Notes under the pieces: model-generated
Seen by the model: the letters and a program-made list of their open reading frames with translations, nothing else
What the model was told of the DNA's origin: nothing
Databases searched by the model: none
In this document: positions 12,941 through 44,170 of the stretch, one piece after another
How positions within the stretch are numbered: the stretch's first letter is position 1
Layout of the letters: each line of letters starts with the position of its first letter
Source of the DNA: Alphaproteobacteria bacterium
GTDB lineage: Bacteria > Pseudomonadota > Alphaproteobacteria > Bin95
Direction of reading: 5' to 3'
Assembly (NCBI GenBank): GCA_963665325.3
Contig: CAXXWS020000004.1
Location: forward strand, 288,001-352,000
DNA length: 64,000 nt
Made by a program: the position numbers and the translations under genes

Positions 12941-13017
12941 CGGAGCGTAGCGCAGTCTGGTAGCGCATCACACTGGGGGTGTGGGGGTCGCAGGTTCGAA
13001 TCCTGCCGCTCCGACCA
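12941..13017 (+). tRNA. tRNA-Pro(GGG)
   Basis: CGGAGCGTAGCGCAGTCTGGTAGCGCA...loop CTGGGGG...GGTTCGAATCC...CTCCGACCA. Confidence 0.96.
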
Positions 13018-26202: not shown

Positions 26203-26247
26203 TACCAACGGTCGTGGATCGGAATCGGGGCAAGATTCAAGAAATTG

Positions 26248-26693
26248 CGGTAATAATTCCCAGAATCTTTAGATCCGAAAAATTCCATGCTAGAATGATA
26301 CAGAAGGAAGCGGCATCCGGAGGCCGCTCCGCCTTCCGCGTCGGCGCCGACGCGGAAAAATCCCCTTGGAACCCACGGGAGACGTGCGCCTTGCGTTTGC
26401 TTTGCGCGCGCAGGCGCAATCAGGCGCGCGAACCGCGCCGGCGCCAACGGGCGCCCGCGCTCGCGCGCGATACGCGCGACTTAGGGTTCCGCCGCAGCGG
26501 GGCCGGCGGAAGGAAGACCGGAACGAAAGAGAACAAAATGGGATGAGGATACGACGGGCCGGATGCAGACAGACGCAAGAGTCGCGGTGGCCCGGCGACG
26601 AACGAGGTGAGGGCAGCCTTATGCCGGAAAACGCCGCGGCACATGCGCCCTGTGCATGCGGGTGGACATGACAAAACATGACACATCATGACA
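26248..26693 (+). repeat. Dispersed structured element copy A (candidate ncRNA / mobile leader)
   Basis: Homologous to the reverse complement of 43423-43943; 32/32 identity between 26413-26444 and 43744-43775; CATGAC at 26667/26677/26687. Confidence 0.8.
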
Positions 26694-26816
26694 TCTCGCT
26701 GGAGTGGGCCCCAGACCGGCCGCCGGTTTGGGGGCGCGGCATCCCGAACAACGGCTGCAATACCGGCGGAAAATCCGGGTCTATACTCCGGCGGTTTCCC
26801 AATCCTTGGAGTTTCC

Positions 26817-27836
26817 ATGCAAGACGCCGTGCTCGATGTCCTGGCCGTCGGCAACGCCATGCTGGACGTGCTGGTCCATGTGGACGATGCCTGGCTGGCC
26901 GAAAACGGTATCGATAAGGGAATCATGACCCTGATCGACGAGCCGCAGGCAGCCATGCTTCACGCGAAGGTCGAGCCCGCGGCCGAGGCGTCGGGCGGTT
27001 CGGCGGGCAACACCGCCGCGGGCCTCGCCTCCCTCGGGGCCCGGACCGGTTATATCGGCCGGGTGCGCAACGACGATGCAGGTGACGCCTTCCGCCGGGA
27101 TATCCGCGAGGCAGGCGTGCGGTTCGACACACCATCGGCGACGACCGGCGCCGCTACCGGTCGCTGTCTTGTCTTCGTCACGCCCGACGCGGAGCGCAGC
27201 ATGCTCACCATGCTCGGAGCCGCTGCGGAGATCGAACCGGCCGACATCGACGAGGCGGCGGCGGCCGCGGCGGCCGTCACCTATCTGGAAGGCTATCTGT
27301 GGGATGCGCCCGCGGCCAAGGCGGCGATGGTGAAGCTCGCGGACGCCGCCCGCGCCGCCGGGCGCAAGGTTGCGCTCACCCTGTCCGACCCGTTTTGCGT
27401 GGCGAGGCACCGGGAGACCTTCCTCGAACTGATCGCCGAACGGGTGGACGTGCTTTTCGCGAACGAGGAGGAGATCGTTTCTCTCACCAGGGCGACCGAC
27501 CTCCGGGAAGCCGCCGGGGCGGTTGCCGGGATGGTCGAGACGGCGGCGCTCACCCGCAGCGCAGAGGGCTCGCTGGTCGTGTCCGGCGGCGAGCTGCATG
27601 AGGTGCCGGCGGCCCGGTTCGCCGCGCTTACGGATACCACCGGGGCGGGCGATCTCTACGCCGCCGGCTTCCTGCACGCCTATACCAGGCTCCTCCCGCT
27701 TGCGGAGTGCGCATGGCTGGGTGGGCTCGCCGCCGCCCGGATCATCCAGCAGATGGGAGCGCGGCCCATCGGTTCGCTTGCCGGCCTGCCTGCCGATGCT
27801 TCGGCTGGCATCGGGAACCCATGCGCGGCCGCGTAA
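26817..27836 (+). CDS. Adenosine kinase / PfkB-family kinase
   Basis: VGNAMLD, SGGSAGNT, YLEGYLWD, FANEEE, DTTGAGDLYAAGFL. Confidence 0.9.
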   Translation: MQDAVLDVLAVGNAMLDVLVHVDDAWLAENGIDKGIMTLIDEPQAAMLHAKVEPAAEASGGSAGNTAAGLASLGARTGYIGRVRNDDAGDAFRRDIREAGVRFDTPSATTGAATGRCLVFVTPDAERSMLTMLGAAAEIEPADIDEAAAAAAAVTYLEGYLWDAPAAKAAMVKLADAARAAGRKVALTLSDPFCVARHRETFLELIAERVDVLFANEEEIVSLTRATDLREAAGAVAGMVETAALTRSAEGSLVVSGGELHEVPAARFAALTDTTGAGDLYAAGFLHAYTRLLPLAECAWLGGLAAARIIQQMGARPIGSLAGLPADASAGIGNPCAAA

Positions 27837-36279: not shown

Positions 36280-36354
36280 TGGTGACCCCAACGGGGATCG
36301 AACCCGTGTCTCCACCTTGAAAGGGTGGTGTCCTAACCTCTAGACGATGGGGTC
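36280..36354 (-). tRNA. tRNA-Glu(TTC)
   Basis: Reverse complement GACCCCATCGTCTAGAGGTTAGGACACCACCCTTTCAAGGTGG...GGTTCGATCCC...GGGGTCACCA. Confidence 0.96.
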
Positions 36355-42133: not shown

Positions 42134-42717
42134 GGCGCGCGAGTATAAGCAGCCCAGGCCGCGCCGTCGTCAACGTCCGCCAGCCGGTCGGCGAGCGCCG
42201 CAGGGAACGGCAGCTGCGCCAGCGCATCGGCGAGCGTCTCGGGATGCGACCAGCGAACCGGGCCGGCGAAAAGGCGCGTGCGCCGCCTGACGCCGACGAG
42301 CCAGAAACCGCCGTCCTCCGCGGGGCCGAACACAGCCCGCGCCCCGCAGAGCCGGCGGAAGGCGCGCGCGACATGCCGCGCTCGCAGGCCGGGAATGTCG
42401 CTGCCGACCAGCACCGCCGGCAGGGCGACGCGGGCGAGCGCCCGATCCATCCGCGCCCCGATGTCACCGCTGCCCTGCCCGAAGCGCCCGAGCTTTCGCG
42501 GCCAGGGGCCGCGTGCGCGGTCGGGCGTTACCGCGAGCACCACCCGCCAGCGCCTGTCCACCGCCAGCCGGCGCAATTGTTCCGCTGTCGTGCGCCGGTA
42601 GAAGGCGGCGGCGCGCGCGGGCCCGATGGCGGCCGCCAGCCGCGTCTTGACGGCGCCGAGCCGGGCCTCGCGCACCATCACGACCACTGTGCCGCGCCGC
42701 ATCCCGCAGGACCTCAT
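42109..42717 (-). CDS. DUF2064 / TIGR04282-family glycosyltransferase-like protein
   Basis: GAVKTRLA, QGSGDIGARM, LVGSDIP, GPAEDGGFWLVG, LADVD. Confidence 0.85.
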   Translation of the reverse strand: MRSCGMRRGTVVVMVREARLGAVKTRLAAAIGPARAAAFYRRTTAEQLRRLAVDRRWRVVLAVTPDRARGPWPRKLGRFGQGSGDIGARMDRALARVALPAVLVGSDIPGLRARHVARAFRRLCGARAVFGPAEDGGFWLVGVRRRTRLFAGPVRWSHPETLADALAQLPFPAALADRLADVDDGAAWAAYTRAPCATRSSP

Positions 42718-43367
42718 TCGTATAGCCTCTGGATGCGCTCCGGCGCCATGCCGGCCAGGAACAGCGAGAGGCAGGCGAGATTGCGCAGCGGCCGGCGCCA
42801 GTAACCGTCGCGGCGATAGCGGATGGCCGACGTCACGACCTCCGCGTCGAGTTCGTCCAGCCGGCGTCGGCCGATGCGGCGGACCAGGTCCACATCCTCC
42901 ATCAGCGGCATGTCGCGATAGCCGCCGACCGCGTCGTAGAGCGCGCGCGGCAGGACCAGCCCCTGGTCGCCGTAAGGCAGGCCGAAACGCCGGGCGCGCC
43001 AGTTCGCAAGCCGCTCGATGCGCCGCGCCGCCGGTGCGGGATCGTCGAGGCGCAGGCGGAACCAGCCGGCGCGCCCGTCCATCGGGAGCGCTACCGGCCA
43101 GTCCGGCCCGAGACGGGAATCGGCATGAAGCACCAGCAGCCACGGCGCGCTAGCGGCCGCCACGCCGGCGCGCAACTGGTGGCCGCGCCCTCTCGGCGCC
43201 TCGATCAGACGCACGCCGGTCGCCTCTGCGATTTCCACTGTCCCGTCGGTCGAGCCGCCGTCCGCGACCACAATTTCCTCGATCCGGTCTCGCCCCGGCG
43301 CCAGCGAGTCCAGCGCGGCCGGCAGGCCGGCGGCAGCATTCAGGGTCGGGATCACGACCGCAAGCAT
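42714..43367 (-). CDS. GT2 glycosyltransferase, TIGR04283 family
   Basis: VVIPTLN, DGGSTDGT, LHADS, PYGDQGL, PLMEDV, TSAIRY. Confidence 0.88.
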   Translation of the reverse strand: MLAVVIPTLNAAAGLPAALDSLAPGRDRIEEIVVADGGSTDGTVEIAEATGVRLIEAPRGRGHQLRAGVAAASAPWLLVLHADSRLGPDWPVALPMDGRAGWFRLRLDDPAPAARRIERLANWRARRFGLPYGDQGLVLPRALYDAVGGYRDMPLMEDVDLVRRIGRRRLDELDAEVVTSAIRYRRDGYWRRPLRNLACLSLFLAGMAPERIQRLYE

Positions 43368-43422: not shown

Positions 43423-43943
43423 TGTCATGAAGTGTCATGTTTTGTCATGAGGCGCCGCCCGTCCGCCGGCCTCTTCCCGGCCTGGGCAAGGAGAGGACCC
43501 CTGCGATGCGTCATGAGATGTGATGATCTGTATGCGCACGGCGTATCGACGGTGGCCCGTGCCGGCATGAAGCAGCGGTTTCGGGCGGGGACTCAGGGTA
43601 TTTCGCCCGGTTTCTCCGACTTATCATCTTTGGCATGGGTTGCTCCGTCTGATCCGGTTATGTTCCATTCGTGCCGACGACGGCTCGCCGTGCAGCGGGT
43701 CCCTAGTTTCGCGCGTATCGCGTGCGGGCGCGGGCGGGTGTCAGCGCCGGCGCGGTTCGCGCGCCTGATTGCGCCCGCGCGCAAGGCAAGTGCGGGGCGC
43801 ACTTATCCCGTGCGTTCCGTTGGGGTTTTTTCGCGCCGGCGCAAGGCAACAGGCGAAGCGGCCCGCGGATACCGCTTCCTCCTGACCCATCATACCACAG
43901 TTTCTCTGAGGTCAAGTTGTTCCTGGTAATTTTTCTTAATTGC
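43423..43943 (-). repeat. Dispersed structured element copy B
   Basis: Reverse complement aligns with 26248-26693; TTGACC (43915-43910) and TG-n-TATGAT (43897-43889) at the head; GTCATG at 43424/43434/43444 at the tail. Confidence 0.8.
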
Positions 43944-43964
43944 CCGAACGAGGCGCAATTACCG

Positions 43965-44170
43965 CTAGAGCGGAATCCGTTCGAATTGAACCGAAACTGG
44001 AACCGAATCCAAGACCGTCACCCCGGCCCCCGAGCCGGGGTCCAGAACCGCTTTCGAAACCTGGTCAAGCCCCGGTAGACTGGACCCCGGATCTCCGCTC
44101 CGCTCCGTCCGGGATGACAACCGGAGTTGCATATCCGGTCCCGGTTCAGCTCGAACGGACCGTGCTCTAG
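43965..44170. mobile_element. MITE-like element with CTAGAGC termini and internal REP-like palindrome
   Basis: Imperfect ~37-bp terminal inverted repeats CTAGAGCGGAATCCGTTCGAATTGAACCG / CGGTTCAGCTCGAACGGACCGTGCTCTAG; inner GTCACCCCGG...CCGGGATGAC element about 44017-44119. Confidence 0.7.

Follow-up and report, generated by a model that had tools for sequence, protein, structure and literature searches.

Candidate promoter-leader cassettes dispersed as mobile elements across an uncultured sponge-associated bacterial genus

Two related elements and the family around them

What lies between the genes of this stretch? The window, by which we mean the whole 64,000-nt stretch of DNA analysed here, holds two related intergenic elements on opposite strands: copy A at about 26207-26712 on the forward strand, and copy B at about 43964-43412 on the reverse strand. 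Directly downstream of each lies a co-oriented gene, a PfkB-family sugar kinase in the case of A (26817-27836, +) and a family-2 glycosyltransferase in the case of B (42714-43367, -). The alignment that had drawn attention to the pair in an earlier, sequence-only reading was reproduced over about 250 nt, with 26248-26495 (+) pairing with the reverse complement of 43690-43943, and the block at 26413-26444 is identical in the two copies at 32 of 32 positions. That reading had described two diverged full copies and had suggested collecting all others; the alignment stands, the number does not. An iterated nhmmer search of the genome (G000; 5.58 Mb in five contigs, 67% G+C) gave a family of dozens, with 72 matches on all five contigs, 63 of them near-full, A and B included. 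A covariance model, R1, built from two seeds (copy B and the nearest paralogue of B), recovers all 63 near-full copies.

The earlier judgement that this is no known RNA family was borne out by Rfam: in the whole window only two tRNA genes (12941-13014, +; 36283-36354, -) reach a gathering score, and five matches found between 26100 and 26900 at E-values up to 10 stay at 9-17 bits where the gathering scores are 40-80. The element was likewise unmatched in a plasmid collection, searched in near and distant modes, and in a phage collection, searched in DNA mode, and the literature that we searched holds no account of such a cassette family. Among the 16 other species of the genus, 13 carry the family, with 22 to at least 70 R1 matches per genome, and R1 matched none of 20 genomes from two sister genera of the same order (37 genomes searched, those of the genus included); a DNA search of the relatives agrees with this distribution. 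The three species of the genus in which the family is missing have small genomes (3.4-3.8 Mb) that are 100% complete.

Individual cassettes range from 380 to 1400 bp and are built, in order, of an A/T-rich upstream region, an extended -10 promoter, some 200 nt of multi-hairpin leader, a ribosome-binding site followed by an ORF or by what is left of one, three copies of CATGACA and a G-rich tail. Directly upstream of copy B lies a separate 202-nt repeat (43965-44166) with TCTAG at both borders; a contig from one public run joins 43964 to 44167 without it, five letters fitting either side, and further copies of the repeat occur in G013 and G008 and in front of cassette copy L088.

The promoter and the folded leader

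Similarity of copy A to its nearest paralogue begins at about 26207, and the left end that follows (26207-26297, +) comprises A/T-rich upstream boxes, a -35-like TTTAGA (26268-26273) and an extended -10 element at 26288-26296, with TG at 26288-26289 and TAGAAT at 26291-26296. The left end of copy B (43889-43964, -) has a TCGTTC box near 43950, TTGACC at 43915-43910, a 15-nt spacer and an extended -10 element at 43897-43889, with TG at 43897-43896 and TATGAT at 43894-43889. Both extended -10 elements had been proposed before and were located as described, together with a -35-like hexamer 15 nt upstream, a distance recognised as short. The latter holds for B and for the family, where a 15-nt spacer, short for sigma-70, is the commonest (39 of 62 scored copies, against 16 nt in 11 and 17-18 nt in 10); for A, the scan tool favours TTTAGA-17-TAGAAT instead. 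Alignment of 63 left ends brings out a conserved TTTGTTC box, a GAAATAATTCC box, CTTGAC and TGnTAnnAT, and the columns of the last two reach a conservation of 0.7-0.9 while the spacer between them varies. TTGAC(C/T/A) is found in 43 of the 62 scored copies and TG in 42. A fixed -35, TG and -10 beside a drifting spacer are, as far as sequence can tell, the mark of a working promoter, which we predict to be of the sigma-70 type with an extended -10. Two public RNA runs contain the flanking genes only, at depth 1-7 and in the form of contigs, which cannot show absence. Upstream of the -35, GTTC-N7-GTTC is exact in only two of the 63 copies (L077, L087), a relaxed pattern adding L081 and L083, and in at least two copies, L051 and L063 (about 2105-2125 of L217), the TTTGTTC box is inverted to GAACAAA.

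Behind the promoter, the structured leader takes up 26298-26490 (+) in copy A, which scores 147.6 bits against R1, and 43698-43887 (-) in copy B, whose 233 bits are those of an R1 seed. Its hairpins in A are P1, P2, P4, P5 (GGCGCG-CGAAC-CGCGCC), P6 and P7. Only comparative evidence counts for this fold, since folding of single sequences is uninformative at such a G+C content: A goes beyond its shuffles with a z of -2.99 (-1.93 for the opposite strand), B is no better than its shuffles (z -0.10), and the lone folds of the two disagree. RNAalifold on a plain MAFFT alignment, in which the variable hairpins did not line up properly, yielded for that reason 14 pairs only and zero double changes; it was replaced by a structure set by eye on B, with all 63 copies realigned to the covariance model. 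In this model-fitted alignment, 90.6% of the cells are paired, double changes occur at 23 of 45 pairs, and 138 double-changed cells stand against 47.3 +/- 6.3 after shuffling (0 of 500 shuffles as high) and 13-39 in a control with partners slid by 1-3 columns. These figures are inflated by the fitting of the alignment to the structure and by the kinship of the copies, and the cells are non-independent. Most double changes lie in P1, outer and inner, and in P2. P4 varies in length and has C or U opposite G, P6 and P7 give a weak signal, and the invariant P5 and most of P4-P7, which hardly vary, are uninformative on covariation. The claim that the stems keep pairing despite substitutions is therefore upheld by the counts over 63 copies and not by single-sequence folding, where A alone departs moderately from shuffles.

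Is it the RNA or the DNA that is kept in this way? G-U cells outnumber A-C cells by 153 to 90 (about 1.7 to 1), or by 70 to 34 in P1 and P2 together, an excess that speaks mildly for selection acting on promoter-strand RNA. Overall, the comparison supports folded-RNA behaviour of the roughly 200 nt after the promoter, and with hundreds of copies over 14 genomes the leader is a candidate for a new class of structured RNA. As to where its transcripts would end, a consensus terminator scan was negative for the element strand in both A and B. A looser script placed sites on 22 of 59 elements, mostly in the first ~55 nt scanned (P1/P2), seven copies having sites further 3' and none at the scaffold end. 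In L046, L057, L060, L075, L076, L079, L086 and L093, P1 is followed immediately by a T-rich run (..GCCGCCTTTTCGCTTTTCTGC..), and in this subfamily the arrangement resembles a terminator or attenuator placed early, some 35 nt inside the leader.

Since most copies have no terminator-like site between the scaffold end and the terminal box, transcription would continue into the neighbouring gene, and A and B probably read into theirs. With a crude GC3-based gene caller and the next gene taken within 400 nt, the downstream gene is co-oriented at 39 copies and convergent at 18 (binomial p 0.0075), and the upstream gene is on the same strand at 30 and divergent at 8. As 18 of 57 copies face a convergent gene, promoter donation is not the whole story.

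The terminal array and the cargo gene

Between leader and array, copy A contains a variable hairpin, P8, and a mosaic middle (together 26491-26666, +) with short non-conserved ORFs only. In copy B, a 41-codon ORF (MPKM..., 43511-43636, -) is preceded by a GGAG site, and its frame is lost between copies. As the reading frame of this module shifts from copy to copy, the ORF is probably a remnant, and small ORFs of the MPK... type were rejected as real genes on the same ground. Across the family, the middle segment is a mosaic of modules common to subsets of copies, among them short ORFs, a tandem repeat of about 50 nt and inserted foreign repeats; in L038, L054, L059 and L072 of G000, the ~50-nt unit (..GCCGCCATCTGCAATGTTCGCCGCGTTCGGCGC..) stands head to tail, one to four times, between leader and box. 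A guide-like role, as had been entertained for the variable segment, finds no footing in modules that several copies hold in common, and the comparison with phage and plasmid sequences proposed along with it matched nothing in either collection.

The right end of the unit, missed by the MAFFT alignment, is a box of three CATGACA with a 10-nt period. In A it spans 26667-26693 (+; repeats at 26667, 26677 and 26687), with a G-rich tail up to 26712, and in B 43449-43423 (-; repeats at 43449, 43439 and 43429), with a short tail down to 43412. Such an array closes the unit in 59 of 63 copies, so that the earlier picture of a scaffold followed by a more variable segment is correct in its mosaic part and wrong in leaving the end free. 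Genome-wide, 65 of 84 double-box clusters have a leader on their own strand no more than 1.8 kb upstream. The 10-nt period puts ATG and TGA into all three frames, and G-rich sequence resembling a ribosome-binding site fills the 8-34 nt after the array; a box ATG is in frame with the next gene, with no stop between, in 18 of 39 cases, by a rough estimate about chance at such G+C. At the left end, CATGAC is not enriched as a partner of the box (8 CATGAC and 8 GTCATG in 63 upstream regions, about 5 expected).

What did these cassettes originally carry? For A and B, a lack of any credible shared ORF had been remarked; in five copies of the family (C1, C3, C5) an intact ORF of 326 codons stands behind the scaffold. 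Between the five intact units, homology sets in about 55 nt ahead of the scaffold start and reaches to about 1320 nt beyond that start, halting just past the array, the first heptamers of which overlap the 3' end of the ORF (..HD[R/K/I][T/S]-stop). The encoded protein matches Pfam Terminase_2 at residues 11-80 (48.1 bits against a cut-off of 26.1, E 2.4e-12) as well as phrog_51, and by tblastn its residues 10-127 match the annotated terS genes of 55 phage records. An AlphaFold model is confident at residues 11-110 and 146-199, a helix-turn-helix and long helices having pLDDT values of 82-91, and the C-terminal two thirds, with a long acidic/basic tail, are mostly predicted disorder. The top rows of a Foldseek search are small terminases of the SF6/SPP1 type, with weak E-values (0.03-0.17), an effect of the disorder that prevails in the model, and with a TM of 0.82 and an rmsd of 0.8-1.3 A for the DNA-binding domain. 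We predict from sequence and model that the first ~125 residues form the DNA-binding and oligomerisation module of a phage small terminase. Among the five intact copies, pairwise dN/dS values of 0.16-0.31, falling to 0.06 or less in the helix-turn-helix, indicate that the protein is in use, under purifying selection. A second cargo family, of 150-190 aa, has no Pfam match and shows weak colinear similarity to the tail of the 326-aa protein.

These five cassettes account for all Terminase_2 matches of the genome. Beside the cassettes, no large terminase, portal or capsid genes were found; the only large terminase of the genome (Terminase_6N) sits in a Mu-like prophage far from all of them, and a GTA-type terminase was not found in the genome. 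The head module of the Mu-like prophage (L210, G000:C1:469000-488000) comprises large terminase, Mu portal, Mu F, protease I, gpT capsid and lysozyme genes, and its Mu-F-like protein of 717 aa has a C-terminal ADP-ribosyltransferase-like domain.

Just before the ribosome-binding site of the cargo, at +258 to +285, an exact GAAC-N7-GAAC occurs in L040, L045, L047, L050 and L062, that is, in four of the five intact terS copies and in L045, a degraded one. L066, the fifth intact copy, has by eye only a degenerate GAAT-N7-GAAT, and A and B have a degenerate LexA half-box at most. The exact motif has 119 sites in the genome; it is present in the lexA promoter, and recA has GTTC-N7-ATTC. By the criterion of this box, the cargo gene is a putative member of the LexA (SOS) regulon. 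Cargo homologues in distant MAGs (38-57% identity) have a promoter, the GAAC-N7-GAAC box and a ribosome-binding site directly upstream, and the 200-nt scaffold is absent in front of them, R1 giving no match there. Phased NTGAC repeats end 20 of 26 terS-like ORFs of other genomes, including genera without the leader; of the six ORFs lacking this ending, two are truncated, one is interrupted by the end of the locus and three are the most distant in the set. Distant homologues with array and without scaffold imply that the gene-plus-array unit predates the scaffold, which on this comparison was added at the level of the genus and stands between promoter and LexA box. The literature searched holds no account of a LexA-boxed small-terminase-like gene with phased 3' repeats; kept across genera, this combination is a testable handle on how the cassettes spread.

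The cargo also bears on a first alternative, namely that the family consists of multicopy genes for a stand-alone small RNA, in which a structured RNA of ~200 nt would act in trans with the variable tail as its target or guide part. Such RNAs would explain the conserved promoter, the covarying P1 and P2 hairpins and a 32-nt core that is near-invariant, as for a protein- or RNA-binding site, and in one subfamily P1 with its T-run could end a short transcript. However, the scaffold end has no terminator-like site, the 22 flagged elements of 59 having theirs mostly within P1/P2; intact members continue into a ribosome-binding site and ORF; and the variable parts are shared modules unmatched in the phage and plasmid collections. 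Moreover, at 50 of 79 related loci R1 lies directly upstream of a terS-like gene on the same strand, a position that makes the scaffold a 5' leader. We therefore hold stand-alone RNA genes to be unlikely, and the self-transcribed ~200-nt RNA of the sequence-only reading is replaced by a unit that runs on into a ribosome-binding site, an ORF or remnant and the terminal box.

Insertion, decay and relation to known elements

The cassette family is mobile, as is apparent from copy L080, a 406-nt insertion (positions 1993-2398 of L215) with GCCC on both sides in G000. In G011, G006, G008 and G012 the flanks abut at a single GCCC, and abutting matches indicate an empty site in further species too. 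This clean insertion with its 4-bp duplication, missing from related species, vindicates the non-autonomous element that had been listed among the earlier options. Other sites are polymorphic as well: that of L063 is empty in G008, G016 and G003, that of L069 is empty in G011, G006, G008, G009 and G003 and filled in G010, G004 and G013, that of L058 is empty in G003, and that of copy B is empty in G013. Beyond the 4 bp at L080, duplications amount to about 4 bp at L058 and perhaps 6 bp at L044, and no clear target-site duplication was seen at L063 or copy B. The ends are ragged, with left junctions 0-32 nt ahead of the TTTGTTC box and right ones 8-34 nt past the last CATGACA. Such ends, combined with duplications of 4 to perhaps 6 bp, agree with no known transposase. 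A search for terminal inverted repeats found none in the family, as had been remarked for the pair, and no dedicated enzyme for mobility was found inside any copy. An autonomous master copy was considered and rejected, the four copies with a box 2-3 kb away holding foreign IS110- and IS1595-like genes (by eye) or host genes. At its left end, L080 carries a piece of the REP-like palindrome found next to a related copy, suggesting that copying of the element took in donor flank as well. This palindrome (CCGTCATGCCCG .. CGGGCATGACGG), a perfect one, lies beside L044 (L216, 2440-2500; G000:C1) and also in G008 (L254), there at the matching site without a cassette.

Copy A is old, judging from the copy that precedes the matching PfkB gene in G011, G016 and G005. 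Its leader is 95.4% identical to that of the G011 orthologue, with flanking genes at 87.5-92.8%, and another copy is 80% identical to its orthologue between flanks at 96%, so that orthologous copies have evolved unevenly.

Mobility of this kind invites a second alternative, in which the family is a DNA-level repeat of the REP/BIME or MITE type, with hairpins that matter as DNA, in recombination, in supercoiling or as transposase sites, and a merely incidental promoter. High copy number, intergenic position, mosaic structure and insertion polymorphism with short duplications would suit such a repeat, as would several synteny breaks between G000 and G011 that coincide with copies, and A-C mismatches, at 90 cells, are not rare. 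We nevertheless regard it as quite improbable, given that terminal inverted repeats were not found, that -35, TG and -10 are conserved despite a drifting spacer, that G-U exceeds A-C on the promoter strand, that the downstream gene is co-oriented at 39 copies versus 18, and that intact members carry a gene under selection.

Our analysis instead makes it likely that A and B belong to a genus-wide family of small mobile promoter-leader expression cassettes, most of them internally decayed. The family is an undescribed promoter-bearing mobile cassette and not a two-copy stand-alone RNA gene; what persists of the first interpretation, which started from a real feature that chance does not explain, is the promoter-headed folded RNA and the non-autonomous element. 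The ancestral unit was probably a DNA-damage-inducible gene, as indicated by the LexA box before the cargo start. Most copies, A and B among them, look like products of internal decay that have retained both ends. We infer that transcription starts from the cassette's own promoter and that the leader works at the RNA level, a regulatory 5' leader being its likeliest role; the decayed copies would then amount to movable promoters equipped with a stop/restart module. Provided that these promoters are active, the genome would contain some 65 strong ones reading outward, many of them right before host genes and each with a conserved leader and a stop/restart box, and the family would be a major shaper of expression and of genome rearrangement in this uncultured sponge-associated genus.

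A third alternative, a self-propagating module in which the array is the recognition site of the cassette's own TerS-like protein, spread, or movement of flanking DNA, proceeds by phage- or GTA-type packaging after SOS induction and short copies are dispersed pac-like sites, would agree with the overlap of array and last terS-like codons at 20 of 26 loci, genera without the leader included, with the LexA box before the gene, with ragged ends unlike those of any transposase and with the SPP1 pac site, where direct repeats surround the small terminase gene start (PMC4737164), but it is very doubtful, as the sole large terminase belongs to the Mu-like prophage, a GTA-type terminase was not found, disorder is predicted for most of the C-terminal two thirds of the protein, the SF6 study (PMC4737164) ascribes little repeat specificity to that DNA-binding domain, and binding and packaging are hypothetical here. 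Similarly speculative, and given little chance by us, is the idea that TerS-like protein and CATGACA arrays constitute a new mobile unit: after DNA damage the arrays would be marked, cassettes and perhaps host DNA beside the ~65 arrays would be mobilised by packaging or cleavage and re-inserted by microhomology, and the leader RNA would provide genus-specific control.

How do the proposed expression cassettes compare with known elements? Correia elements are 100-155 bp long and have inverted-repeat ends and a TA duplication, with promoters that arise at the ends. Unlike these, the cassettes measure 380-1400 bp, have no terminal inverted repeats, contain one internal, oriented and complete promoter with a 200-nt leader, end in a direct-repeat box and include coding members. 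Pneumococcal BOX elements and enterobacterial BIMEs are intergenic mosaics of reusable sub-blocks with stable predicted RNA hairpins and are not known to have a promoter of their own or coding members; the cassettes are likewise modular, intergenic and hairpin-rich, but their modules are ordered as promoter, leader, cargo and box. Compared with REP/BIME sequences, the repeated entity is an ordered series of hairpins of ~200 nt behind a promoter, not a palindrome of 20-40 bp, and some copies adjoin a separate REP-like palindrome. Compared with MITEs and Correia elements, insertion polymorphism between related genomes is present, whereas terminal inverted repeats were not found. The likeness to the Correia elements of Neisseria, as one study portrays them (PMC2649163), lies in being short, high-copy, intergenic and mobile, with promoters beside host genes and transcripts that fold, in the cassettes by prediction.

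The N-terminal ~125 residues of the cargo resemble the small terminase of pac-type phages (SPP1/SF6 G1P; PDB 3zqq, 4zc3, 2cmp) in sequence and fold, and direct repeats at the gene edge are a further common trait, located 3' in the cassettes and not 5' as in SPP1 (PMC4737164). Unlike in pac-type phages, the gene has no neighbouring large terminase, portal or capsid gene and is present in five or more dispersed copies per genome, and its product has a long acidic/basic tail predicted to be disordered. TerS-encoding satellites of the PICI type are several kb in size, carry integrase, replication and repressor genes and use one attachment site. With them the cassettes share a chromosomal small-terminase homologue without a full phage and putative SOS-linked control, here deduced from the LexA box; unlike them, the unit consists of one 1.4-kb gene found at many sites.

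Two further observations concern the surrounding genomes. Stretches of about 1.6 kb in G000, at 9226-10870 of L211 and 15813-17434 of L213, are absent from the otherwise colinear G011 and are probably other insertion elements. Around 2020-2503 of L216, two genes overlap in seven species (TTGA start/stop, by eye; G005, G009, G015 and G014 compared), and in G000 and relatives they are set about 480 nt or more apart by inserted repeats, the downstream gene starting at a new ATG (MSGL..).
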